A stretch of 64,000 bases of DNA, from positions 744,001 to 808,000 of the forward strand of contig OZ287077.1 in NCBI GenBank assembly GCA_965645245.1, in the 5' to 3' direction. Made by a program: the position numbers and the translations under genes. Within the stretch, counting starts at the first letter, position 1, and each line of letters begins with the position of its first letter. This stretch comes from Massalongia carnosa. Taxonomy: Eukaryota. Below are positions 10,914-62,059 of this stretch, piece after piece. The notes below the pieces were generated by a model. It saw only the letters and a program-made list of their open reading frames with translations, ran no database searches and was not told the origin of the DNA.

Positions 10914-11261
10914 GTAACGAGCAAAGGGAGAGGTTTTTTCTTTTTGGAAATGCTCGTTCGAACCCATAAAAAATCTTAATTATCATTGCATGTTTTCTTT
11001 TCGAGTCAGGAAAAGATGGGAGTATTCCAATTCTGTATACCAAGCTACGGGAGTTACCTCTAAGAAGTCGTATTAGTCGTCTCCATTCTGCAGCGCCAGT
11101 CCAATTTTCTGTTTCTCAACCCTTATTGCACAACGTTGAGTGATTCCGTGGCGTGGTATTGTTATTAATAACGTTCTTTCCCCTCCGCACTCTTGCTCAT
11201 ACTTCCAAAGTCGTTTGCCGATCTATTCGTACTAGGTCGCAGTCGAGCGAGAGCGCTGCAG

Positions 11262-11476
11262 TTGCCTCAGTACCTCAGACGTGCCCGGCTAAGCCCCTTC
11301 GGGTTAGCCTTATAGAACGTTAAGCCCCTTCGGGTTAACAGGCTGACTACGCAGCACATCTGTAGCAACACGTTAGTCAGCTGGGACGCTAATCCGAAGG
11401 AGCTTAGCGAAATAGGCTAACCCGGAGGGGCTTAGACGGCTCCTATAGCCCACGCACGTCTGAGGTACTGAGGCAA
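11262..11476. mobile_element. MITE, copy 1 (215 bp, 23-bp TIR, 8-bp TSD)
   Basis: TIR TTGCCTCAGTACCTCAGACGTGC at both ends; TSD CGCTGCAG at 11254-11261 and 11477-11484; near-identical inverted copy at 61153-61368. Confidence 0.95.
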
Positions 11477-15738: not shown

Positions 15739-16027
15739 CGTAGTAGGTATATTTCTCCTGCTCTTTATTATTCGATTACTAGCTTCGTGCTTGGAAATCA
15801 ATCTATACAAATACTCCGTACGTACAGAGTATCATGTGGTTTACCGAAAGATTAACTAACCAAGTTCAGTTAACTCGGCTAGCAATTTCGCAATTCGGAG
15901 AAAAATTCCATACGAAGACGTAACGGAGTAATATATAACAGCATCCCTTACTGCGATGAGAGTCGACGACGAGGTTGAGGTATTGTACAGTATAGCGAGG
16001 TCGACCCCAATGTACTCTGTAGACTAA

Positions 16028-16097
16028 ATCGTGCCACACCACCAGTAATCGTTTTCGCTCACTAAAACGATTACTGGTACTGGTGGTGTGGCACGAT
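16028..16097. mobile_element. Near-empty, slightly degenerate copy of palindromic mini-element A
   Basis: ATCGTGCCACACCACCAGTAATCGTTTTCGCTCACTA followed by AAACGATTACTGG(TACTGG)TGGTGTGGCACGAT; matches the two outer ends of the 45778-61024 stack. Confidence 0.88.
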
Positions 16098-16433
16098 TAC
16101 CGCTTACTACCCAACCATTTCATCTGACTATCCATTTCCACTCGCTCTAGACCGCCAACAATCATGCAGTTATATGGCTATTGTCTTTTTTGACCCATTG
16201 GCGGGCCATCCCGCCTCGTGCTAATCAAGCCTTTCTTATGGACACTGTGGCGCTCCGCCCCTGAAGGGATCAGTGAATCGACCACTTGACCATTGGTATT
16301 CCATTCCACGAGCATGGTCCTCTCGCTGTCAAGGCCGACGGCTTCACATCATGCTCCTCCAGCCTAAGTTCAGTCGATGAGGCCTGTCAGATCCAAGGCT
16401 GCTTAACGTTCATTTCTCAGCATTCCCTCCATC

Positions 16434-45021: not shown

Positions 45022-46050
45022 TATATTTTATAATCTTGGATATAGTCTTTATTTGTCAGTGCTGAGCACGGAGTGGAGGGTGGTTTCATTTTGGATAGAA
45101 TCTTTGACGTCAATTGGAGAAGGGGGCGCAAGCGACCAAGTGTGCATATATGGAATTGACAGTGAGGTAAATAAGCCGCATTTTGATTTTGAGTTCTATT
45201 TGGGAAGTGCAGGCGATATTCTACGATCCAATGACGGCGAAATGTGGGGTTTTATATTTTATGTAAATTTTAATTGAACTCCTGCCAAAGTCTTCAATAT
45301 CCCGCAGGCAAAGCAACCTTTTCAATTTTCTCTCAATAGGGGCTTCACTGAATTCAGCAAAGAATTTTTGGTGCTCGGTACAAATCATAGACTCTCGAAA
45401 TGAAGTCATGACATGACCGGAACTAATCTCCTAACCGCTTCCCAACTCCGGTCGGCGAAATGTCTATTCAGGGATAATTTGTTATAAATAGAAAACTTGG
45501 TCCGAGTGGTTATGGCGCAACATTTGGAAATCCTCGGCCGTTCAACGGAGATACTCAAAACCCTTTCTCAAGTATGAACAAATCAAAATCCAACTCGGGG
45601 TAATGACGAGATTAGTTAGGGATAAATTATCCAATGTCGGCTAACAGGATATGCAGCAAAATCCCAGGAAAGGTTAAGTTAAGCTTTAGTGAAATCCATG
45701 CAGGAGAGAGAAAATCTACCACCCTATCATTAGGCTAGCGCTAACAGGAATCGAATATTGAAAATGAAATAGAGGTAATCGTGCCACACCACCAGTAATC
45801 GTTTTCGCTTACTAATCGTCGGCTAGTCGCTCGCTTAATCCTCTCCCTCCAAGAAGCATTCGCTTCTAGTCGGGGAAAGCAAACTTCGTAGGAAAGCGAA
45901 GCTTCGTAGGCTCGCACGCGGGGGACAAAAAAAAAACTACACCAAAATTTAACCGGGTTCAACCCCCCACCAAAACACAAGCAATTTCCATACAATTTTG
46001 ATGGGATAATCACCATTTCAACAACCAGTCATCCAATTCATTCAATCTAT

Positions 46051-47136
46051 TCAATAACCAGTCATTTTACCCTCACCATCCAAAACAGCTCTCAATCTAT
46101 CTGGCATAGTAGACACCCGTTCATTGATAAATGCCTGGGAAACGTTCGCCCACCCCTCATAAATTAGCCCCTTGGTCGTATCATCATCCCAATGAGGATA
46201 TTTTTTTAAATATTGCTTCGGGGCCTGCCAGCAAGTTTCTATGGGGGCCAAATCAGGTGAACATGGACAGTTGAAATAGTGCTTCAGATCGTTGTTCTGC
46301 TTCCAAGTGCGTACAATGTTTGATTTGCCTGGTCCATGTCCAGAATCACCGTCTTCTTCTAAGACGAAATCGTGTTTTGCTTCAATCCAGGGCTTCACAA
46401 TAGGCTCCAATATAGAGTCGATATAGACTCGTTGACTCATCTTTCCATTGGAGTTTCCAGGAACTCTGTAAAAGTAGATATCTGACTTGAAGTCATGACC
46501 TGCAGCAGCCCAACAGTGATGTCTCTTCTTGACGGCCTCGTCTGGTTCATCTGCTTCTTGAATACAATCATGACAATAACGTTCACCTAATCTTCGTATG
46601 ATGCGTAATTTGCCCTGAGGTCCCCATCCAAAGTGCACTTCGTCACTAAATCGAACTTGTTTCCAGTCTTCTGCATTTGGATATCTAGAAAGCATAGCAT
46701 CTGACCACTTCATACGAAGCTTTCTTGTCTTCTCGTTCACCCATCCCTTTCTGCACGCAATGCATTTGTGATAATCCATGGTGCTCATGATTCGTTGAAT
46801 GGTTTTGCCACTGCAGTCTAGGCCTACTTCGAAGCCCAATTGCTCCCATGTAAGAGCGCGCGCCTCCATACCTTCTTCTTCCAATAGCCGTTCCATTTCT
46901 CTAATCAATTTAGGCGTAACAATTTTGTGACGCCCACGAGCTTCAGAAACATCGGAATTATTATGATGACGGCGTGATGAGGCTCCTTCACGCAGGTATG
47001 CATAGCCCCTCGTACGTTCCACATCAAATGTGCGAAAAACATCCTCTTTGTGATAAGAAATGCCTTGCTTTTCGCAAAATTCAACGGCTCCCTGAATTTT
47101 AGCTTTGGTAGGAGTCTCGATATGTTTAGAATTCAT
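46051..47136 (-). CDS. Tc1/IS630-superfamily transposase of element C, 361 aa, intact, DD37E
   Basis: MNSKHIETPTK...; FSDEVHF, LEEDGDSGHG, SPDLAPIETCW; 37 residues between the second D and the E. Confidence 0.92.
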   Translation of the reverse strand: MNSKHIETPTKAKIQGAVEFCEKQGISYHKEDVFRTFDVERTRGYAYLREGASSRRHHNNSDVSEARGRHKIVTPKLIREMERLLEEEGMEARALTWEQLGFEVGLDCSGKTIQRIMSTMDYHKCIACRKGWVNEKTRKLRMKWSDAMLSRYPNAEDWKQVRFSDEVHFGWGPQGKLRIIRRLGERYCHDCIQEADEPDEAVKKRHHCWAAAGHDFKSDIYFYRVPGNSNGKMSQRVYIDSILEPIVKPWIEAKHDFVLEEDGDSGHGPGKSNIVRTWKQNNDLKHYFNCPCSPDLAPIETCWQAPKQYLKKYPHWDDDTTKGLIYEGWANVSQAFINERVSTMPDRLRAVLDGEGKMTGY

Positions 47137-47145
47137 AATAATGAT

Positions 47146-49392
47146 TGATTGATTGATTGATTTATTCTTATTCCGATATGACACCGGCCGAAGGCCGGCC
47201 CATGCGGGCTGTCTATGTTTATCATACAAGGAAAACCCTTCTTGGGAATAAAAACCCCGTAGACTACGCACTACCTCCGGAGCCTCGCTGGCAACAGGCT
47301 GCTCTCTGTGATCGTTTTTCTTTAGAATCCTTGACGAAAATGAGAAGTTATATCTCGTATAACATTTGCGATGCTAGTGAGAACTGTGTTAACAAGTTTG
47401 CTTTTATTATCCATGCAGTTAGCTTTTTCAGCATTTTCGACGAACGCGTAATCGTCCGGTAGTCGTGGGTGCCCAATTGTCTGAGCAGCTCATATCTGCC
47501 TTCGATTAGTCTGCAGTGTAATATGATGTGTTTGGCAGTCTGTTTCTGCCAGCCACACGAGCAAGCTGGAGTCATAGCTCCCGGAACCCGACGATTGAAC
47601 AGGAAGTTTGCCAAACCTATTTTCTCAGTGCGGATTTGCGTGGTTAGCGCGCTTTCCGCCTTCATCAAGTTGTCATGAATCTTCAATCTAGTTCTGTTGA
47701 GTGGTCCGAGCTGTGCCTCTGTTGGGTAGGGAACGCGGTCCTGATACGCCTTCCACCTGGTCTCCCAACGCTCCTTGATTCGTACTGTAATGGTCTTTGC
47801 GTGCTTTCCGATAATTCGGCGTGCCGTGATGTATTTCTCGAGACGGACAGGGTCGGGTCCTGACCAGGGTCGGGGCGGCGGCGGTATTGCGGCTGGGGCT
47901 TCGTTGTTTAGCATCTTGCTGGCCCATTCGTGTTTTAAATCTCCTAGGGTGGGGCGTTGTATTCTTTTGCGTCCTGCCTTGCCTCGTAGCTTGTTCGCTA
48001 TTGTGCTGCAGGCAGTGGTGATCAGTTTCGCTTGCCCTGAGGCCCGTAGGCGGTATCTTGCTTTCATCTGCAGATGATCCAAGTGTAGCTCCATAGGGGC
48101 GATGAAAGTTTCCGCTTCGAGAACCTCGACGGGTGTTGCTTTAAACGCTCCTGCCACAGTGCGTAGGCATTTGTTCTGCATGACACTGAGTTTGGACATC
48201 GTGGCCTTGTTTTTCTTGATTTCCTTGGGCGTGTGCCACACGGCGCTTCCGTATGTCATTGCCGGGCGGACGACGGAGGTGTAGACCTGCCGGGCCTTTG
48301 CGAAGGATGCTCCCCAGGTGGATGCCGAGATTTTTGTGAGCGCTAGCGACTGCGACGTCATCTTTTCCTGCGTCTTCCGTATATGAGCTCCCCATTTTAG
48401 TTTTGTGTCGATTTGTAGGCCCAGTACTCTTATGTCCGTTTTTGGTTCAATCAGATTGGTTTCAATTTGAATAGTGGCCGTCATGTTGAATTTCTTTGGA
48501 TTTCTTGACAAATGAATGAGTTCATATTTATCCGGTGCAAATACGGAGCCATGCCGTGTCGCCCACAATTCGCATTTCCTGTGAATTCTTTCAAGAGTTC
48601 TGCAATTTTCTTCCGTGCTTTTACCGTATGCCAACACGTTTACGTCGTCTACGAATCCCAGCGCACTCGTGTTCGTGCCGGGTCTCTGGCATATCTCTAA
48701 TAGGTCCGCGTTGTAGAACAGATACAGAATAGGGGAAATGGGCGAGCCTTGAGGAATGCCCGTGCGCACTGCGAACTCCCCGGTTGCTCGCCGATTTATT
48801 GCTAATGTGGTTTTCCTATTCTCCAGAAAGCTTGCTGTCCAGTCTGTGATCCATTTCGGAATTTTCCTTTTCCGTAGATTGTGTATTAGCCTACGGTGAG
48901 ACACCGTGTCAAACGCACCTGCCACATCCATGCTGAGTAGGGTTGCCACCTTGTCGTTGCCTTGTCCCCATACGGTGTATACCTGTTCTGTGAGAAGCTC
49001 GAGTGCGGACTCGGTGGATCGCCCTCGCCGAGCACCCATTTGCGTGTCGGGCAAGAGCCGATGCTGTTCCGCTATGTGGGTGATTTTCTTTGCGATGACC
49101 GCTTCTAGAACTTTACCCATTGTGTTCAGGAGAGCTATGGGCCGATATGCCTTTGGGCTGGTGTTGTCTTTCTTTCCCGGTTTTTTGAGCGTTATCGTGT
49201 TCGCTCTTTTGAACTCGCGAGGATGATACGCTTGCGTGACGCACGCCTGAAATAAAGGGGTTAGCAATTCTGCTAGCTTTGTAGAGCATGCCTTGAGGAT
49301 TTTGTTGGTGATCCCGTCAGGACCCGGAGCCTTGTCGGACTTGAGGCATTGTATGTTTGCGATCACTTCGTTCTTTGTGATCATCATGGGAC
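47146..49392 (-). mobile_element. LINE1: 5'-truncated Tad1-like non-LTR retrotransposon inside element C
   Basis: 13-bp TSD TCATAATAATGAT at 47133-47145 and 49393-49405; (AATC)n tail; 3' hairpin motif at 47182-47208. Confidence 0.94.
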
Positions 49393-49396
49393 TCAT
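47348..49396 (-). CDS. Endonuclease-less LINE reverse transcriptase ORF, 682 aa, uninterrupted
   Basis: KAPGPDG, YRPIALLN, DVAGAFD, GIPQGSPISP, FVDD and C-terminal CSCG..H..C; ATG supplied by the upstream TSD copy. Confidence 0.88.
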   Translation of the reverse strand: MSPMMITKNEVIANIQCLKSDKAPGPDGITNKILKACSTKLAELLTPLFQACVTQAYHPREFKRANTITLKKPGKKDNTSPKAYRPIALLNTMGKVLEAVIAKKITHIAEQHRLLPDTQMGARRGRSTESALELLTEQVYTVWGQGNDKVATLLSMDVAGAFDTVSHRRLIHNLRKRKIPKWITDWTASFLENRKTTLAINRRATGEFAVRTGIPQGSPISPILYLFYNADLLEICQRPGTNTSALGFVDDVNVLAYGKSTEENCRTLERIHRKCELWATRHGSVFAPDKYELIHLSRNPKKFNMTATIQIETNLIEPKTDIRVLGLQIDTKLKWGAHIRKTQEKMTSQSLALTKISASTWGASFAKARQVYTSVVRPAMTYGSAVWHTPKEIKKNKATMSKLSVMQNKCLRTVAGAFKATPVEVLEAETFIAPMELHLDHLQMKARYRLRASGQAKLITTACSTIANKLRGKAGRKRIQRPTLGDLKHEWASKMLNNEAPAAIPPPPRPWSGPDPVRLEKYITARRIIGKHAKTITVRIKERWETRWKAYQDRVPYPTEAQLGPLNRTRLKIHDNLMKAESALTTQIRTEKIGLANFLFNRRVPGAMTPACSCGWQKQTAKHIILHCRLIEGRYELLRQLGTHDYRTITRSSKMLKKLTAWIIKANLLTQFSLASQMLYEI

Positions 49397-49640
49397 AATA
49401 ATGATAATTATCCCATCAAAATCGTATGTAAATTGCTTGTGTTTTGGTGGGGAGTTGAGCCCGGTTAAATTTTGGTGTAGTTTTTTTTTTGTCCCCCGCG
49501 TGGCTCGCAACGTTAAACCACCACCACATCACTAAAGCACCACCACATCATTTAAATTACTATTACATTTACTATCACATTATTATTTATTATCATATCG
49601 TTAAATTACTATTGCCGCTTTAATAAAGAGCTGAAACCTA

Positions 49641-51509
49641 CAGAGGCGAATCTCAAAAGTAATGATAATACGCTAAAGACTAGCGCCGTAATTTAGATTT
49701 TCCATACCGAGCCTGAAATTCTACCAACTATCTACAAATGCCATTACCAACCATCTAATCAACGTCTTTTTGGTCTGAAACTGGCTGCAGTACGAATAAC
49801 CTTCTGAATGCGTGGGGGAAGGTGATTTTTCGGAGATAAAACGGCTCTTTTTCTCAATAAGGGGGGTGTCAATGGCTTCTGTGTAGGGGGCTCAGGGGTA
49901 ACTGCCCTGACATTCAACGGGCTGGGTGTATCATCATTTGATTGTCTGGATGATGGTCTCGTTGACGCCACAGAAGAAGAAGAAGAAGAAGAAGAAGAAG
50001 CTGGTTTTGCTGTATTACTGAGCAATTCTTCCCTCAGCTGTTGAAGTCGCATTTTTCCTTCTTTGGTCCGTCCATCAACGTCCAAACGTCCTTCGCAATA
50101 CTCATTTCCACCTTCCAATTCAATGACTTTTGCAATGTGACGTGGAATTCTTTCAATCCATGCCTGAATATTCTCCTGAGGTAGATCGTCCCAAGTGCGA
50201 TGCCACATAGATTCAGCAATTAACCGAGAACTAGGAGGACCTTTGGCAGTTGTACGTCGCTTCATCCAGGGCCAGCAGGGTTCAATCATGTTGAGATCAG
50301 GAGAATTTCCGGGCCATAAAAGACGCTCGATGCCATGACGAGAGAAGATGGGAATCTGATGCTTGGAAGCATGAGACGGAGCCTTATCTTCCTGTACGAT
50401 CATTTCAGACAATCCGGCTTCTCTTCTTTTTGCATTGCATTGCTGAGCAAAAGGAATCAGTTTTGGCAGAAGTATAACGTTTTGATACCGCCACCAATCA
50501 ATGCCTCCTTTACCTTCTTTTCTGATCATCTTTCCATGTTCCTCATCCCATTTCCATTGCGGCTTTTTTCCTGGTAAATTGCGAGTTGAAAGACGTCTCA
50601 TTCCATTGGTCAGCTCCCAATTTAATCTCTCACTGGCTTCCAATGCAGCATTCATCTCGTCAAGCTTGGTTTTGGCTTCCGCTTTTTCCGCTTTTGTCTC
50701 CGGTTTCCAGCAATGACATGGCCCCTTCCAATCGTAGGAAAAGCATCCCCAAAACATGAATTCATGAGCCCCATGCCACCTAGCACGTACGGTGGATTTG
50801 ACTGGTCTTCTTCCTTCCTTGGTTGTACGCCAAATTTTGACAGCTCCGCGACGGTGACCAAGCACTATTGCTATTTCATCTGACCAAATAACCCGCTTCC
50901 AATCCTCCACGGTCCAGTCTTTATACAGGAGACAAAAAGCCAGTCTAGCCGCTTTCATTTCAGGAGTAAGCCCTGGTCTATACGACGGTTTGACTTTTAT
51001 AGCCTCTTTGTTTCAGGATTCTCCACACGGTGCATCTGGACAGTCCAACTTCTCTTGCCAACTGGGCACTGGTTTTTTCACGGGCGTATCTGTCTTTTAT
51101 GACTAGATCAATGACTTCATCTTCTTTCTCAGTAGTAGCCTTTCTCGGTCGACCAGATTTTTCTTCATGACGGGCGTATTTATCAAGCACCTGCAAAGAA
51201 ATGGCGGGATCAAATCCTCGATCCCTGGCAATGCGACGAATACGATAAATGTTGGGGACAGAATAACCTGTAGTAGCTGCAATAAATTCAATTGAGGCCG
51301 GGGTGCAATAAGACAACGTCAAGACCTGAGCCCGCAAAGAAGTATCAGCTGATTTATTGACCATGATGATGATTTGATCAAATGTTGGTTCGTAAATGAT
51401 TTGGGATGAGAAAAGGGGAAAGAAAAGGGGAAAATTTGCTCGGTACGGAAAATTTAAATTACGGCACTAGCTTTTAGCGTATTATCATTACTTTTGAGAT
51501 TCGCCTCTG
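49641..51509 (-). mobile_element. Element D: Tc1-like DD34E transposon, 1869 bp, 72-bp TIRs, TA TSD
   Basis: TIR CAGAGGCGAATCTCAAAAGTAATG... at 49641-49712 and 51438-51509; TA at 49639-49640 and 51510-51511. Confidence 0.95.
49759..51364 (-). pseudogene. Transposase of element D, split by one frameshift near 50995
   Basis: HTH part is ORF 50978-51364 (SGRPRK); catalytic part is ORF 49759-50958 (WSDE, QEDKAPSH, SPDLNMIE). Confidence 0.85.
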
Positions 51510-53083
51510 TAGTAATATCCTAATTGTTCTTGTACATCATTGTCAGACTCGTTGCCTCCATCAGTATCGTCTTCATCAAACGGCAGAAAATCTCTTTGCA
51601 AAGAAGAATCACCTGTAACATCTGTGATGAATGTTGTCTCCGCCTCATCTTCATCTTCATATTCATTATATACTTGAGATTTAGTCTTTTTCGCTTTCTT
51701 TCTCTCTTCTTCTTGCCAAGTAACATCTGTTGCCTTCCAAATTGCTTCGGGATCGGGAATAGGAATAAGATGCTCGGAGGAAATAGCAAGATCTTGTTTT
51801 GAAAGCTCTTTAATTTGTCGTAAACGGTTTCTTTCTTGCTTTCGAGCAATCACTCCTTCGGCATATTTGGCGTCTCTTTCCATACGCCAAATCTTCATCC
51901 ATGTCTGATGCTGCTTCTTTGCTTCTGTTTCTTTAGCTTGTTTTTCCTTTGCTGCAATCATCTCCTCAGCATTCTCTTTAGTAAGCCCTAATCCTGAACC
52001 TAAGGTTCGTAATCGCTTACGAGAGGTAGATTTCTGTTTTAAGTCATCTTCTCTTCTTTTCTGATATATAGATAATTGAATATCATTAAACGTAGCTTGT
52101 GTACAAACGGTTTTTGTATTATTAACAAACGACTCAAATTGCTCTGAGCGAGCCGGATCACTCCACAACATTCCTTGTTGAATTTTCTTCTGCCATGTTT
52201 GAAGTCCTATTTCAACATCCATTGAGGATGTTGGCTGAATATGAGGCAAGATTGGAAGAGTAGGCTCTTTTTCTTTATTGTGTAGCTTTTCTTGAGCATC
52301 AGGCGGCTTGAAAGTTTTAAGCAATGAGATGCAGTTTTTAGCATTAACAGGCCACATTCCTGATTTCTCAAAAGCACTTCGAATAGTATATTTCTTGAAA
52401 GTATTATCACGTATCTTACTAAGATCAGCAAGAAATCGCTGTAATGTATACTCAACATTGAATTCCAGTAGAGCATCTTGAATTGCCATATCATGCCAGT
52501 GTTTATAAGGTTGAAATACTCCAACATCAAGCGGCTGCATACAGTGTGTAAGATGCGGTATAAGCGGATAAGGACGAATGTGATTTATATTAGCAAGAGC
52601 TATGAGCTCAGTAGTACAATGACTGCCATGATTATCCATGAGCATTATTTTCCAGTCTGCTTCTGGTCCAGAGTCTGAATGATCAATATAATGCTGAAGA
52701 AACACCTGTGCTATCTTGTCAGAGGTAAATCCGTTTTCTGAAGGTATAATTCGAGTTCCCTTTGGCAGCTCTTTTGAAAACCAGTCCATCATGATTTCAT
52801 GTCCTTGTATAAGAATTAAAGGTGGTGGAGGATAGTCGCCCGCTGCATTGATGCATTCAAATGTCGTGAGAGATTTACGATTTTCAGGACTTGATTTGAT
52901 TTGATTATTCTTACGCCGTTGTGTCACCGGCCGAAGGCCGGCCCATGCGGGAGATGCTATATAAGCTATGTAATAAGTAGAAAACCCAAAGGTGAAAAAC
53001 TACTCCTGCGTATCCGCTTCATCGGGGGTTCGCTGCTCCCGCGGATTGATTCCTGTATCTCGAAAATCTGCGATACCTGTTTT

Positions 53084-56000
53084 TCAAACTGAAGAGAGAC
53101 TGCCCGGCTGCTGTTCAAGCAGTTGCGTGGCAATGGAATACTGTGTTAAAATACCTGTGCGCATGAGCCACGCGGTTACTACTTTGAGAGCTTTGGGTTC
53201 GGTGATTAGCTTGCGGTAGTCTGACGAGCCTGCCGTTCGTAGCATGTGCGTTCTGTGTTCGTGCAGTCTGCAGAACATGATTACATGTTTGGCTGTTTGT
53301 AAGAGGCTTCCGCAGGGACATGCCGCCGAGTTCACACCTGGGACCTTGCGCCGATATAGAAAGTTGGCCAGTCCGATTTTTTCCGTTCTTATCTGTGCTG
53401 CTAGTGAGCTTTGCGCTTTGTCTAGTAACTTGTGTGCGTTAAGCCTTTTCCTGTGTATAGGCGCCTGTTGTGCGATCGTGGGATATAACGTGTGTTTTGC
53501 TTGATATGCTTTCCACTTGTTGATCCACTGATTCTCAAAGTGCTTCTTTATTATCCCGTCTCGTTGGTTCTGCGTCGTTACTTGCGCTGTGCGTTGTCTC
53601 TTCTGTGCCTCGTCGATCGTTGTCCAGGGAGGGGGAGAGGGTTGATCCAGTTTAACTGTTTTCGGTGCATCTTTCGTCATCTTTGTTACCCATTCTCGTT
53701 TACGAGTTCCCGGTGTTTTCTCTGCGACTCGCGATTGACCTCTTTTGCCTCTGAGTTTCACTTGAATTCTATTGCACGCCTGCTTTATAATTTTTTCCTG
53801 TTCGCTGTTCGAGATTCTGGATCTCGTTTTTGCTTGTAAGCGGTCTAGATGTCGCGTTAAGGGAGGGATGTGGGTTTCTGCCTGTAATACTTCAATTGGG
53901 GTAGCCTTGTACGCTCCGGCTATGACTCGTAAACACTTGTTTTGTATGACTTCGAGTTTGCTTCTTGATTCGACTTTGGCTTTCTTTCTTGCTTCGGCTG
54001 GCATGTGCCATGCTATCGAGCCGTGCGACATGGCGGGGCGTATCACTGCTGTGTACACGTGGCGGGCTCGTAGGAGGGTCGCCCCCCAGGTTGAGGCTGC
54101 GATTTTGGTCAGTGCCATTGTTTGTCTCGTCATTTTCTTCTGAATTTCCTTGTAATGCGCTGCCCAATCGAGTCTAGTGTCAATGTATACTCCCAGGACT
54201 CTTATCGAAGTCTTGGTCTTCAGGATCTTGCCTCTTACCGCGAAGGATGCGTCCAGGTTGAATTTCTTTGGATTCTTTGCCAGGTGTATCAGCTCGTATT
54301 TGTGTGGCGCGAATACGGAGCCGTGGCGAGCGGCCCATCGTTCGCAGTCGTTGTGTATTTTTTCCAGCGTTTTGCAATTCTCTTCGGTGGACTTTCCGTA
54401 CGCCAGTATATTGACGTCGTCTACGAAACCCATGCCCGCTGCGTTGGTACCTGGTCTATTGCAAATATCGAGTAAGTCTGCATTATAAAAGAGATATAGA
54501 ATGGGAGACAAAGGAGATCCTTGCGGAATTCCTATATTCAGCTGGAATGCGTTGGTTGTTCGTTGATTGATAGTGAGAGTGGTTTCTCTTTCCTTGAGGA
54601 AGCTTTCTGTTCATTTCGTGATCCATTCCGGAATTTTTCTCTTTCTCAGATTATGAATGAGCCTACGATGTGAAACCGTATCGAAGGCGCCTGAGACGTC
54701 GATACTAAGAAGCGATGCTACTTTGTCTTTCCCTTGATTCCAGACCGTGTGTACCTGCTCCGTGAGTAGTTCGAGCGCTGTGTCCGTTGCGCGGCCTGGT
54801 CTTGCTCCCATTTGCGTGTCTGGAATTAATCTGAGTTTTTCCGTTAAATAGCTTATTTTCCTTGCTATAATGGATTCTAGCATTTTTCCAAGCGTGTTTA
54901 GGAGCGCAATGGGTCTCCACGCCTTAGGATCCGCGTAATTACTCTTTCCTGGTTTCTTCAGCGTGATGGTGTTAGCGGTTTTGAACGCTCGAGGATGATA
55001 ACCCTGCTCTGCGCAGGCCTGGAACAGTGGTGTCAGCAACTTGATCAGATTTTCCGAGCATGCCTTGAGAATTCTATTTGTGATCCCGTCTGGACCGGGT
55101 GCCTTGTCTGGTTTCGACCTACGAAGCGCTGCCGCCACTTCTTCTTTCGTGATCAAGATGGGGCAGTCTGGGGTTTGCGGGTACGTGAATCCTACGATGT
55201 CGCTGAGATCTGCGTCCGGGGGTAGGGGGAAGAAAGATTTCTTTAGCATTTTCGCTTTCTCTTCGAAGGTATTGGCTATCGTATCAGGGTCCTGGGTTGT
55301 GGCCAGGGGGGGCATTTTTGGGATTTCTCTGGGGGCGTCACTTTTGTTTTTACCCCACTTTGCTAGACGGAAGAGTCCGGATTGGGAAGTTGTGATTGTG
55401 GCTATTTGCTGTTTGAAGCAGAGATTTTTTGCTTTACCGATAATTTTTTGTTTCTTATCGTTTGCTTTAACGTAGTTTTTCCAATCCGCTAGGTTTCTTT
55501 CCGCGGTCCAGATTCTTCGTAGCCTACGAGTCTCCCTTGTTGCGTCGTCGCATTCCTTATTCCAAAAGGGTTTCGCCTCCGGGCTTGGTCTGGCCCATGG
55601 TACTGCTTTATCTACGATTTCCTTGAGGTAATCCTGGATTTCCTTGGTATATTGATCGATTTCCTCGATGCTGTGCGGCATGCGTGGTGCGGGGGTTCTT
55701 TTCTCGATTTCTTTTACCTTGTCCATGTTTAGAAGTTTCCAGGCCCTTCGTGGGAGCTTTGTCAGGGGTTCGCAGGAGAGCCGCAGTCTCGTTGAAATCG
55801 GTATGTGATCGGAATCTTGATTCATCTCCGGGACCGTGGTGCAGTGTTCCAATCTCTCCGTTAAATCTTCTGTCATGAACACCAGATCAATGGTGCTGGT
55901 CGAGTTTCTTGCTTCCCATGTAATTGTTCCTCTTGGAAGTGAGAGAGAGATTTTTGTTTTCTATAATGTCCAGCAGTTGTTCGGACGCCTCGTGCTGTCC

Positions 56001-56489
56001 TCGTACCCCTGCTCCACCCCAGTATGGGTGATGGAGATTGAAGTCTCCTAGAAGAATATGCTCTCCGGGGTCTTGTAATTGGTGTAATACGGTCGATAGG
56101 GTGGACGGGCTAGTTATCGAGGAAGTGGATAAGGGCGATGGATTGTATACGTTGTGTATGTGAATCATTTTTGTTCCGTTTCCGATTTTTACTTTTATTT
56201 TCAATGTGCTCATATCCTTTGACGGGTATTCCACTTCCCAGCTTTCTGGGTCTATTTTGTTATTGATATAAAAGCAAACTCGCGTGTCGCCCCCTGGTTT
56301 ATAAAGAAGATGGAACCCCCTTTGATAGGGGTTAAGAAGTAGGGACGTCGTAGGGTTTTTCCACGGTTCTTGAATAGCTATGATGTCGAAATCCTGTGTT
56401 CTTTTATCTGACAGCAAGGGTATCAGTGTGCCTTTTGCACTTTTTCTGACATTGTACTGCAGTATCGTAAGGGTTTCTGTGTTCTTCAT
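53084..56489 (-). pseudogene. LINE2 ORF2: APE endonuclease, reverse transcriptase and CCHC tail, disrupted
   Basis: ILQYNV, IAIQEP, GDFNLHH, SDHIP; frameshift near 55935; TGA at 54611-54613 where LINE1 has Trp; FVDD; no RNase H motif seen. Confidence 0.92.
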
Positions 56490-58122
56490 AGCATTCTTTC
56501 GTTGAGTTGTATCTCGTTGGTGTTTCTTGCTCTAGTTATCGGACGTCCTCTTTTCGGTTTGGCGAAGACCGACTCTCTGTTTTCTGGGTTCATTATTTTT
56601 GCCCTCGTCGACCCCCATTCTTCCCTCCCTCGTAGAATCCTCCGTTCTTGTGCTTCTTGTGGTGATAACGAGCGCGACCGAGTGACTCTCAGTTCTCTAA
56701 TTGATCTCGCACTTTCTTTTCTCTTACTTATCTTATCGTCTTCGTAGTTTCTGTCATTTCCACTTCGTTTTCCGCCTCTTCTCCTTCCTGCGGCTCCACC
56801 TCGTTGGTAATGTGTGTCGATGGGAACTCGTTTTGTGAGGCGTCGGTGGGTTTGTTTGATTGGTGTTGTTGATTCCCATGACCTGCTTCGGTTTCGTCCT
56901 CGACTACGACTTCCATACGCCCCCCCTGCGCTTGGCTGAGGATTGCTTTATTTCCTTTGGGTGGGGGCGGCACTGCGTACAAGCGCCGGCGTGATTCTCT
57001 TGTGATTTCCGTGCGGTGTTTTTTCTCTTTCCTGACTTGGCATTCCGCTGCCCACGCTGGGTGTCCCTTGTCCCCGCACACTGCGCATCGTAGGGACCTT
57101 CCGGTTCTGCTGCATGGGCAGTTTCTGCTGTCGTGCCTTCCGACGCAGTACCCGCAGACGGTGGGATTTTTGCAAAACTTCGCGATGTTTCCGTATTGCT
57201 GACAATTGAAGCATTGCGTGAGCTTGCAGCCGGCTTCGAAGAGCTCGCATGTTTTTATTTCCCCTTCGTCCGCCAGTCCTACGAGGATCAAACGATTGGC
57301 CATTTCTGCAGTTTCTACCTCGATGTGTAACGAGGCGTAGCGCTTGTTTTGTTTGCGGGCTCTGGCGCTCCAGGCTACTCGATTGATTTTCAGTCCTTCA
57401 TGCAATCCTGCGTTTTCCTTTGTCAAGTATTCCAATGCTTTCGCTTGCTTTGACCCTCTGACTTCGTTCATTTTTACTCCGTGAGCTAGAATTGCATAGC
57501 CTTCTTTACGTATCGTCGCTGATGCAGCAACTCTCTTTATCCATTCCGAGTGTGCTTGCAAGGTTTCCTTGACTTCCGGTGTTTTTACGTGAATTTTTAG
57601 ATCTCCACTTGGTAGTCGTCGGATGCCCGTCACCTCTTCGTTAGAGACTCGTAGGGCGTCTACTATTTCCTTTGTGGTCTTTTTACCTAGGGCTTCCTGC
57701 TCCTTGGGGTCTTCTATTCTCACTATGATTTCCTTCATTTTTCTCTTCTCTCTGAGGGTGTTTTCCTCGTTGAGGCCTTGATTCTTCACTTCGGTTTCCT
57801 GTCCGCTTTTACGCTTTCCTGCTGCGACCGCCGCGTAGCTGAGAGCCTTGCCGTTATTCTCGCCCTGTTTTTCTATCTTCTTCAATCTTTGCTGAATATC
57901 CTGCAATGTATCTTGAAAATTTTCCTGCGTCGACACGTCGAGCGCGTCGCGTTCCGATGAAGTTTTTTCTATGAACTCAACAAGATCGAGTATCCAACGC
58001 CTCGCCTCCGCGCCGGCTACAATCACATCTGCTCTTTCCAGAAATTCTCTTGCTTTGCTTGTTAGCTCGTGAGTTTCACTTATCTCTTGCCCTTTGGCGT
58101 CGACACTCGTTGTCGTATTCAT
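56486..58122 (-). CDS. LINE2 ORF1, gag-like with three zinc knuckles; probable 1-nt frameshift near 56748
   Basis: CFNCQQYGNIAKFC, CGYCVGRHDSRNC, CAVCGDKGHPAWAAEC; open to 56728, with an alternative frame continuing to a TGA that overlaps the ORF2 ATG. Confidence 0.85.
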
Positions 58123-59115
58123 TCAGAGTACTTATTGATAACGATAAATTTATACATAAGGTATTTAGTTGAATTTATAGTGATTTGTTTTGCTAAAAAT
58201 TTTTGATTTTCAGGACTTATCGCATAGAACTAAAATATATATTTAACTTGCTGAATAAATGAATAAGAATATAGAATCTAACTTCTAATACGTCTGTGGG
58301 TGCCAGAATTTGATGCCCTTGCATACACCCAACACGAAAGCCTGCCTCATCGAAATTGACAATATTCTTCTTTGTTTTGATCTGTAACGTCTTTAAAGCT
58401 TGTCTATAATCTACAAACCATGCTTGTATATCCTTCTCTTGTGCAGCGGTGAATCGTATCATTGCTAATGGCTTAGTCTTGATCTTGTGTAGGTTATTCT
58501 TTTTCCACCATGTTCTGAACCAGCGTAGAGTAGGTCCACTCGACTCAGGATTTTGCCCGCGTTTTAAACTGACAATTACATTGAATACAACTCCGTGCGA
58601 TGGTTGAATACCTTGTGCAAGTAAGGATCGAATAAAGTGATGAATCGCTTTTACTTGATGCTCCTCAAGTATCTTGTTTTGTCCACCTCTTGCACTTTTT
58701 GCACTGGAAGAAGATTTCTTGTTAGAAGAAGATTTCATATCAGAAAAAGAAGATTTCTTATCAGTCGCAATAGAGCTGTACAACGTTGTAGGCCGAATTT
58801 TGAATATCTGAGCTGCGCATGCAGTTCGTTCGTCAGGATTTTCCAACAAGAATGTTATACCATCACTAATACGTGTTTGTAAGGATACAGAATCCATTGT
58901 AGATATAGATAGCAATGATTTATGATGTGATAATATAATAATGTAATAGTAAATGTGATAGTAATTTAAATGATGCGGTGGTGCTTTAGTGATGTGGTGG
59001 TGGTTTAACGTTGCGAGCCTACGAAGCTTCGCTTTCCTACGAAGTTTGCTTTCCCCGACTAGAAGCGAATGCTTCTTGGAGGGAGAGGATTAAGCGAGCG
59101 ACTAGCCGACGATTA

Positions 59116-60987
59116 GTGCCCAACGGCTCAAAGACCAAAACGGTTCAAAGACCAAATTAACTATGTATGGTCAATTTGACTACGAAAAGCCTTCCACCAT
59201 TTGGTCCTTTCAACCTCCCATTTTTTACGTGCTCGGAGGAAGGTATTGGCCTCACGAAACAGTCCTTTCCAGAGCTTCTTTTCGGCGTTGTCGATGTCCT
59301 GTTGTTTTTTCAACGCGGCCGCTTTAGCTCGGTCCAAGGCCTTCTGTGCCTTTTCCACCTCATCTTCATTTCGTTTGGTGACTTTAGCACGTACGTCTCG
59401 AACGGTGATGACCCCACCTGACTGAGCAACAGTTCCAGCAAGCTTTTTACGCGCCGCCTTAGCAATTGAGGCTTTAGCTGAGGTCAATAAGTCCCTTTCG
59501 GCCAACTGCTGAGCATGAGCGCTGGCCATAGCACCTTTGAAAAAGCGATCGACATGCAATTTATAATCTCCGCCGACAGCATCATTTGTCTGCATGCTTC
59601 TTTGAAGTTTAGTGCCAAAGATGATGACCTCAGTGAAAGTGCGAGGTGTTCTGGCCAATAATGGGGCCGATGGTGGGGGTGGAGGGGTAGTTGGCCTTTG
59701 ACGAATTTGCGCCTCGATTTTCGAAATGACCACATTTGGATTATAAGGCACTAGTCCTGTGTTCCTGAATGCAGCTAAAATCGTCGATTTGGTGAATGTT
59801 TTGAAGCGCATATCCTGAAAATCGACAAAAAGTCAATCTTGCTGAACTCCCCTGCTCCGGCACGAATAGCCTCATCAATGGCCTCAGCATGGTAATGTTT
59901 GAACGGCCGAAAGCATCCAACGTCCAGTGGTTGGGTCAGATGAGTTGAATGAGCAGGTAATCTGAATAATTCGATGTGCTTGCTCTGTGCATACTCGAAA
60001 AATTCATACGTCATATGAGATCCATATCCGTCCAAAATCAACAACCTCCATGCACCAATTTGCCCTTTTGCACTATGTTTATGAAAATGTCTCAACCAGT
60101 CAATAGCGAGGTCATCATTTGAATAACCCGTTGGACTGACGGCGAAAAGAATGTCATCATCCAAATCATTCTCCAGGGCCCATTTCTCCTTGATTTGTAC
60201 GCCAGGAAGTATGATCATGGGGGGAATATCCCTCCCTCCACCACTAATACTCTCCACCGAGGTGATGTAGTCTCTGTTGTCTGGATCCGTCATCAAAAGA
60301 GGCTTATGGGAATGAGTCGAAATCACCCAATGAGCTCTTCCACAGCCAATTCGAAAGCCCGTTTCATCCATGTTCCAGGTGTCCTCGTCCACGATTCCTC
60401 TCAACTCTCGAAGGGCCTTGTACTGCTGAAAATGCTTCATCATACTCTCCGAATCGTGCGACTGTTTACGCTCAACAGCAAGAGGTTTTTGTTTACGTTT
60501 GAAGTACTCCGGATGACGTTTTAAAAATCGTCTGGTCCACATGGCGCTTACGATAGGAAGTGGAGAGTCGGTATGATCACGATCTGTTTGTCCAACTAAT
60601 GCTCGACCGAGCAGATAATTAGCAGCTCCACGAACCATCGAGAGCTTAGCTGATTGTTCCATATGATCCAATCGCTCAATGTAAGCACAAATAGCCCTTT
60701 CTTGTGCATTCGTAAGTGCTTTGTTGCTTGGTGAACGAGTTAATTTGGAATCCCCTCCATTAAGCCTTCGACGAAGTGTCCTCGAATCGACGTGAAATTC
60801 TCGAGCAACAGCGCTGGCACTAGAATAATCACCATTGTTATACGCGCTGATGGCCTCATCAAGACGATTTTCAGAGTCCCAGAACGAATCAGTCATGGTG
60901 GTGTGGAATAGGCAAGCGTTTGGTGAAGGATGAAATAAATAGTTAATTTGGTCTTTGAACCGTTTTGGACTTTGAGCCGTTGGGCAC
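59116..60987 (-). mobile_element. Element E: pogo/Fot1-type DNA transposon, 1872 bp, 49-bp TIRs, TA TSD
   Basis: TIR GTGCCCAACGGCTCAAAGACCAAAACGGTTCAAAGACCAAATTAACTAT (1 mismatch, internal direct repeat); TA at 59114-59115 and 60988-60989. Confidence 0.95.
59161..60896 (-). pseudogene. pogo/Fot1 transposase of element E, with a 1-nt frameshift near 59820
   Basis: HTH N-terminus; WNMDETGFRIG, LDGYGSH, QPLDVGCF; continues in ORF 59161-59811 (AAFRNTGLVPYNP). Confidence 0.9.
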
Positions 60988-61152: not shown

Positions 61153-61368
61153 TTGCCTCAGTACCTCAGACGTGCGTGGGCTCTAGGAGCCGTCTAAGCC
61201 CCTCCGGGTTAGCCTATATCGCTAAGCTCCTTCGGATTAGCGTCCCAGCTGACTAACGTGGTTGCTACAGATGTGCTGCGTAGTCAGCCTGTTAACCCGA
61301 AGGGGCTTAACGTTCTGTAAGACTAACCCGAAGGGGCTTAGTCGGGCACGTCTGAGGTACTGAGGCAA
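61153..61368. mobile_element. MITE, copy 2 (216 bp, inverted relative to copy 1)
   Basis: Same 23-bp TIR as copy 1; TSD CTTTTATC at 61145-61152 and 61369-61376. Confidence 0.95.
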
Positions 61369-62059
61369 CTTTTATCATTTGTTCTCTTTTGCGGTCAATC
61401 ATGTCAAGAAAACTGAGCCCCAACTGAGACAGATTTATATCGTATCAAGAAATTGGATTTTCCCTATAAGTCCTGTTATTTGCAACCCCTCATCCGCCGC
61501 ATCGATCTATCCTCAAAAGAGTTTGCTACAAGTAATTTCGCCAAACTTCCTCCTTCATTTCACTATCTTATCATTATCCCTTTCTAACACTATTTTATTT
61601 CTTAGATTATCATTTCTTAATCTTCATCAAGTTCTGTTCCTAATAAAGGTATCAAGGATGGATTTTTCAAATCAAGGATTCTTAACGTTAGACAATGGTC
61701 ATGCAGGTACTCCGTAGAATGAGGACAATCTAAGAAGCATAATCGAGGCGCGGCCCGCATTACAAACTATTTAAGGGCTTACTTAGTAATGAAGACATAT
61801 ATGTTTTCCTGACGAATTACTTCAAACTTGCCTTGTAACGGTTATGATACTTTCATTTGTTTGTAAACATCTTGAGATATTGAAATCAAGAAACTCCATA
61901 GCATTGAGTAACAACCCGCTAGTGTCGCAAAGGACGAACTGCAGAAACAACAACTCTCTTTGTGTTTCTTATCTTATAATGGCCTATGAAGCTAATCTGT
62001 TCTGAAAAACACCCTTTAAGGTAGGAATGACTGCGTGCTTGCTATCAGCGGACACTGCA

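Follow-up and report, generated by a model that had tools for sequence, protein, structure and literature searches.

A stretch of 64,000 nucleotides of Massalongia carnosa contig OZ287077.1 (the window, to whose positions all coordinates refer) carries a nest of four transposons. Element C, the subject of this report, lies in the left inverted repeat of the larger, pogo-like element B, and is itself interrupted by a retrotransposon (Table 1). It is Tc1-like by its protein but departs in its integration signature from the TA duplication of the IS630/Tc1/mariner (ITm) superfamily: it is the sole element of the four that is not bounded by TA, each of its ends being adjoined instead by the pentamer GCTCG.

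Table 1. Positions of element C, of its parts and of the elements nested with it.
Feature	Position	Strand	Basis or description
Left copy of the 5-bp target-site duplication, GCTCG	45910-45914		sequence; the 5-mer is single in the empty site
Element C	45915-49502		inverted-repeat pair and flanking GCTCG
Left terminal inverted repeat of C	45915-46017	+	starts CACGCGGGGGAC, then A-run
Transposase open reading frame (ORF) of C, 361 aa and stop, Tc1-like, DD37E	46051-47136	-	open frame, Pfam, profile, fold
13-bp duplication, first copy (TCATAATAATGAT)	47133-47145		overlaps the transposase ATG at 47134-47136
5'-truncated non-LTR retrotransposon (long interspersed nuclear element, LINE)	47146-49392	-	RVT_1 match, 109 bits
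LINE 3' tail, short (TCAA)n-type	~47146-47162		sequence
LINE reverse-transcriptase ORF	47351-49396		ORF list and RVT_1
13-bp duplication, second copy	49393-49405		sequence
Right terminal inverted repeat of C	49400-49502	-	ends ...GTCCCCCGCGTG
Right copy of the 5-bp target-site duplication, GCTCG	49503-49507		sequence
Paralogous empty site in the right inverted repeat of B	59009-59022	-	minus strand reads GTAGGCTCGCAACG
Tc1-like neighbour, DDE_3, DD34E by own count	49641-51509	-	CAGAGG...CCTCTG ends
Element B, pogo-like	45815-59113		starts ATCGTCGG..., ends ...CCGACGAT
Element D, pogo-like, DDE_1 and HTH_Tnp_Tc5	59116-60987		TA-flanked

Ends of element C and its empty site

The terminal inverted repeats of C measure 103 nt, with arms that are 94% complementary (inverted-repeat scan of the window); an earlier reading made from the letters of this DNA (the sequence-only reading) had rightly recognized the inverted repeat, but had put its length at 96 bp. 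The ends of the element read CACGCGGGGG...CCCCCGCGTG, with GCTCG adjoining on each side: on the left, ...CTTCGTAG (ending GTAG) and GCTCG lead up to the border of the element, and on the right the border is followed by GCTCG and then CAACGTT.... The terminal 18-mer of C occurs at two sites in the window, both of them ends of C.

The flanks of C are formed by the left inverted repeat of B, whose arms pair with the right repeat on both sides of the insertion (45811-45916 with 59012-59117, at 100%; 49502-49586 with 58935-59019, at 96%); the right repeat of B therefore keeps the target uninterrupted. This empty site contains a single GCTCG and no TA at the junction, which bears out two statements of the sequence-only reading, namely that C sits in the left repeat of B with the right repeat as its pre-insertion site, and that the insertion is a non-TA one. 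The same empty site is found in contigs of two other public runs (X6 and X7), where 45916 continues directly into ACGTTAAACCACC. Up to 8 nt of the empty site (GGCTCGCA) are common to the two flanks of C, because the bases beside the pentamer happen to equal the outermost bases of C; the window copy alone thus permits a duplication of 5 to 8 bp, an ambiguity that its relatives settle at 5 bp. Loose contig ends at 45915 or 49502 are listed in none of the four runs, of which X8 and X9 cover parts of the stretch.

Within the left inverted repeat, CACCAAAA occurs twice, at 45940-45947 and 45968-45975, 28 bp apart; the two copies may be binding sites of the transposase. The layout of the repeat, a CACGCGG heptamer, about 5 nt and then an A-run, is superficially like the heptamer and nonamer of Transib ends and recombination signal sequences.

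The transposase of element C

The transposase ORF is open over its 361 codons and encodes a protein of the Tc1/IS630 type with a 37-residue D-E spacing, intact as the sequence-only reading had described it. Pfam finds DDE_3 in it with 31 bits (cut-off 28.6), and the same domain is matched by all 25 aligned family members; HTH_Tnp_Tc3_2 is matched by 17/25 of them at E<=0.01. A RAG1 or Transib domain is not found in the window protein by Pfam, which reports only DDE_3 and HTH_Tnp_Tc3_2. A profile of the family, searched against the PDB, retrieves the catalytic domain of Sleeping Beauty at E=7.3e-15, and the alignment brings together the SDE, the second D (EDGDSGH in the family, HDNDPKH in Sleeping Beauty) and the SPDLxPIE motif. 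Relative to Sleeping Beauty, the family of C has three extra residues after the second D, hence the D-E spacing of 37 (D263 to E301, numbered after alignment A1); some members carry a further 1-3 residues in this stretch.

The AlphaFold model of the C transposase has a mean predicted local distance difference test score (pLDDT) of 70. When it is compared with PDB folds, each of the first 15 places is taken by Sleeping Beauty, Mos1 or SETMAR/Metnase; the DNA-binding domain of Tc3 (1u78) matches weakly, at rank 26 with E=0.13. The low-confidence stretches of the model are residues 123-132 and 174-193. Three residues, C126, C192 and H208, do not vary among the 25 family members, and C129 hardly does (A1 numbering); all four lie in or beside these two stretches and may form a metal site specific to the family.

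The five-base duplication among relatives

Related loci, 80 in number, were taken from metagenome contigs, and inverted ends were sought by BLAST of the upstream against the downstream flank of each locus; 56 loci have inverted ends, 19 lack them and 5 offer too little flank. Eight were dropped for a short, probable chance match or for being cut by the contig start (L032, L040, L044, L049, L053, L058, L069, L077), six as repeats of the same insertion (L006, L009, L016, L030, L039, L065), and five for a missing or degenerate terminus (L008, L021, L022, L051, L033). The scored set thus comprises 37 loci and the window copy, 38 insertions in total, each element being delimited by the terminal C...G of its conserved ends. 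The 37 relatives are 1263-1516 bp long and share 41-67% protein identity with the window transposase. [quoted passage not shown]

A perfect 5-bp direct repeat borders 24/38 insertions, that is 23 of the 37 relatives and the window copy, all with ends of the C(A/T)C...G(A/T)G type; the 23 positive relatives span 41-66% identity to the window transposase. Control pairs in which left and right flanks were mismatched give 4 perfect repeats at 5 bp out of 1406, and shifted registers give 0-2. At other lengths, perfect repeats are absent (0/38 at 4 bp and 0/38 at 6 bp) or rare (1/38 at 7 bp; 2/38 at 3 bp, at the element ends), and in none of the 38 insertions is TA present on both sides. An automatic scan, which demanded fixed terminal motifs and at least 20/24 inverted-repeat matches, finds a perfect 5-bp repeat in 15/24 pairs, or in 13/19 unique complete pairs. 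The sequence-only reading had named the flanks of other copies as the place to look, with TA there as the outcome that would speak against it; in the relatives scored here a 5-bp repeat is frequent and TA on both sides is not seen, so that the reading is upheld, and widened from one copy to a whole clade. The clade consists of ~1.3-kb elements with C(A/T)CGCGG-type termini and a transposase of the IS630/Tc1/mariner superfamily.

Target preference

Twenty-four target sites could be reconstructed and oriented by the transposase. Within the pentamer, C prevails at position 1 (18/24) and position 2 (13/24), A or T at position 3 (18/24), and G or C at positions 4 (18/24) and 5 (17/24); outside it, T is found at -3 in 12/24 sites and A at -2 in 15/24 on one side, and G or C at +6 in 19/24, T at +7 in 17/24 and A at +8 in 19/24 on the other. 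The pattern, TA-s-CCWSS-s-TA, is roughly palindromic. The duplicated target is thus approximately CCWSS and GC-rich (69% in the pentamers vs 47% in the flanks), often with a TA one base outside on each side, and takes the place of the TA otherwise duplicated. Binomial p-values, uncorrected for about 116 position-by-base tests, are 1.4e-7 for C at position 1, 7e-6 for T at +7, 1.1e-7 for A at +8 and 2.3e-4 for A at -2. Counted by eye, 8 of the same 24 sites have the full TA step at -3/-2 and 13 have it at +7/+8, including 6 that have it in both places. These sites are few, and those with flanking motifs in common are perhaps not independent. Downstream of the transposase gene the pattern is more pronounced than on the other side.

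Hosts and abundance

Searches with the transposase return 361 related proteins at E<=0.001, whose source names, where given, are all ascomycetes (Pyrenophora, Bimuria, Clathrospora, Ophiobolus, Macroventuria, Colletotrichum, Rutstroemia and Orbilia); a cluster look-up adds further ascomycete hosts, in the Xylariaceae and Coniosporium. Among 50% representatives, 3269 clusters are reached at E<=1e-3, and a stricter threshold of E<=1e-30 leaves 241. The protein nearest to the C transposase, P0001, has 99% identity to it and belongs to a 90% cluster of 42 members, several of them full-length and on contigs of 2-4 Mb. Between 0.86 and 0.95 of the sequence words sampled from C are present in a lichen metagenome run and in runs of four coded organisms. 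The 42 near-identical protein variants and the open frame of the window copy suggest that the family has been active recently. The cluster names, 'hypothetical protein' or 'Tc1-like transposase' throughout, do not connect the family with any named transposon family, impala for instance.

Weighing the evidence

We consider it highly probable, at nearly nine chances in ten, that C is a cut-and-paste, Tc1-like DD37E transposon of a large ascomycete clade whose members integrate with a 5-bp stagger. In its general build it is a Tc1 element, ~1.3 kb long in its canonical form, whose inverted repeats enclose a single ORF of ~360 aa, with DDE_3 matches in all and HTH_Tnp_Tc3_2 matches in some of the family members, and with a DDE triad that aligns with that of Sleeping Beauty in a fold like those of Sleeping Beauty and Mos1; its 37-residue D-E spacing is that reported for impala and TRT (impala is classed as DD37E in the accessible text of PMC7325037), which together with Mosquito make up the DD37E groups compared. 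It differs from the Tc1 family in duplicating a GC-rich 5 bp and not TA.

Several observations weigh against this reading. The DNA-binding domain HTH_Tnp_Tc3_2 scores 26.3 bits in the window protein, under the cut-off of 31.5. A perfect 5-bp repeat is missing from 14/38 insertions: L015 matches at 4/5 positions and L019 at 3/5, L001, L043, L054 and L057 become perfect only when 1-3 extra bases are allowed at one end, and no repeat is found in L011, L014, L018, L025, L026, L061, L070 and L074. For the four loci with extra bases, mis-set ends, untemplated bases and a variable stagger are candidate causes; in L057 the displaced repeat reads as a 7-bp repeat. The ends were shifted by eye at 15/37 loci, which could favour the 5-bp reading, although the automatic scan agrees with this placement on the subset that it covers. 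The relatives come from metagenome contigs and some of their target sites are alike (with shared CCTAAGG-like flanks), so that they may not all be independent, and the window copy is the only insertion scored from its own >90%-identity family. Finally, the reading is drawn throughout from static copies.

Alternative explanations

The alternative that survives best leaves the biology as described and holds that both the clade and its 5-bp duplication have been catalogued before, for instance among the fungal 'Mariner/Tc1' entries of Repbase or Dfam; we rate it as unlikely, though as a serious contender. Sequenced ascomycetes such as Pyrenophora, Bimuria, Clathrospora and Colletotrichum, for which curated repeat libraries exist, are rich in the family, and a possible point of contact is an insert in the MFS1 promoter of Zymoseptoria tritici, which, as far as the accessible text of PMC7174668 goes, has a transposase ORF of 1032 bp, inverted ends of 62 bp and, at its junctions, an unusual 'inverted' duplication, TA/CTCGTG, and was later put in a Tc1-Mariner family, DTT_Birute. 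This insert may be a relative whose CAC-type terminus was read as a duplication. The same text reports no Repbase match for it, the accessible part of PMC10045372 gives the 2-bp TA duplication as general for ITm elements, and no Tc1-like group with 5-bp duplications was found in a search of the literature, outside of which lay Repbase, Dfam and supplements such as those of PMC7325037 and PMC7386202. As regards fungi, the Tc1/mariner families of Paracoccidioides are described as TA-flanked in what is accessible of PMC2836289. That C represents an undescribed ascomycete Tc1-like clade which has widened the most constant trait of its superfamily, the stagger, from 2 to 5 bp, is a tentative proposal, to which we give somewhat less than an even chance.

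Much less probable is that the ends of C are moved in trans by an unrelated transposase with a 5-bp stagger, such as a Transib-like one, the Tc1-like ORF being a passenger or inactive. The CAC termini, the A-run further in, the 5-bp duplications and the GC-rich targets do recall Transib, which the accessible text of PMC1131882 describes as alone among eukaryotic superfamilies in making 5-bp duplications, and as having GC-rich targets and CACAATG termini; the comparison drawn by the sequence-only reading is apt as to the CAC ends and the GC-rich 5-bp duplications. It is a resemblance only, because the protein of C is not RAG1-like: by Pfam, PDB profile and fold searches it belongs to Tc1/mariner, on which grounds Transib was rejected as the family of C. 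The heptamer and the A-run are, moreover, separated by ~5 nt in C and not by 12 or 23, and Transib is reported as absent from fungi in the part of PMC5751038 that is accessible. Against movement in trans, the ~1.3-kb elements at the 37 loci hold only this ORF between their ends, at 41-67% identity, so that ends and ORF have diverged together.

Zator, with the prokaryotic ISAzo13 (TP36), offers a second comparison, as a lineage near IS630/Tc1/mariner that is reported not to duplicate TA; the accessible text of PMC7386202 handles Zator, pogo, Gambol and Tc1/mariner as separate ITm superfamilies. Zator duplicates 3 bp, according to the accessible part of PMC10045372, vs 5 bp in the clade of C, and its catalytic domain is reported to lack detectable Pfam similarity, whereas DDE_3 is found in 25/25 members of the family of C. 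It was rejected as the family of C on this match and on the repeat lengths (3 bp in 2/38 insertions, 5 bp in 24/38).

Just as improbable as movement in trans is a duplication of a length other than 5 bp, in particular 7 bp (GGCTCGC) with ACG...CGT ends, the alternative parse that the sequence-only reading had set beside its preferred one of 5 bp with CAC ends. The window copy by itself fits any length from 5 to 8 bp, and L057 shows a 7-bp repeat. The 7-bp parse requires a G before and a C after the pentamer, however, and these are present, by eye, in only 5/24 sites; with perfect repeats in 24/38 insertions at 5 bp, none at 6 bp and one at 7 bp, the parse with CAC ends is the right one.

Least probable of all is that C is an ordinary TA-duplicating Tc1-like element whose integration went astray in this one case, or whose flanks were rearranged afterwards, for, although Sleeping Beauty is reported to integrate at non-TA sites with low frequency (accessible parts of PMC5801840 and PMC7987939) and the window holds a single copy of C, the same 5-bp repeat occurs at the same type of terminus in 23/37 relatives, TA is on both sides in 0/38, and the empty site fits the element plus 5 bp exactly.

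Other elements of the nest

Of the length of C, 2.26 kb belong to the nested LINE, which is inserted between the start of the transposase ORF and the right inverted repeat. In contigs of runs X8 and X9, 47132 is followed immediately by 49393; other copies without the LINE therefore exist, and the canonical element measures 1328 bp. In this copy, the later LINE insertion parts the start codon of the transposase from the right-end sequences upstream of it. A similar LINE copy (70-86%) is found at ~52896-54853, and LINE-type ORFs (reverse transcriptase, then endonuclease) run on to 56489.

The DD34E neighbour has TA on both sides (49639-49640 and 51510-51511), and its CAG-type end differs from the CACGCGG termini of C. 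Elements B and D, when read with TA duplications, are both TA-flanked, with the TA at 59114-59115 common to the two. The sequence to the left of B (45770-45815) recurs at 16020-16104 as a near-palindrome. Two adjacent inverted-repeat pairs, 11260-11476 and 61153-61370, are 97-98% complementary and lie ~50 kb apart, enclosing most of the window.

A possible mechanism

In the mechanism that we propose, the same Tc1-like protein would cut and join C: a transposase dimer assembled on two CACGCGG ends would join them to target phosphates 5 bp apart, and repair of the resulting gaps would duplicate the pentamer. The target looks like the old one split in two: on either side of a CCWSS pentamer, after one intervening base, comes a TA step, the two steps ~9 bp apart. 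A TA, or the flexibility of one, may therefore still serve each subunit, with the active sites further apart. The flanking TA steps could accordingly act as flexible hinges or as retained recognition elements. The longer stagger would arise if, in the transposase dimer, the active sites were spaced differently or the target were bent differently; as candidates for what alters the geometry we name the insertion of three residues behind the second D, and C126, C129, C192 and H208.

Significance for the superfamily

The TA duplication serves to recognize and classify IS630/Tc1/mariner elements, including their protein-less derivatives; a clade that breaks this rule is liable to be misclassified, or to be given wrong ends, by tools that depend on TA. 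It further indicates that the stagger of strand transfer can shift inside a family of otherwise conserved fold, and the structural basis of duplication length thus becomes testable against Sleeping Beauty or Mos1. If the reading is true, the clade and its TA-duplicating kin would provide a natural pair of close enzymes for asking what sets the length of the duplication in DDE transposases, and a Tc1-type tool free of TA; given the apparent recent activity, seen in open frames and in the abundance of near-identical copies, there may be an active element that could be used in these experiments.

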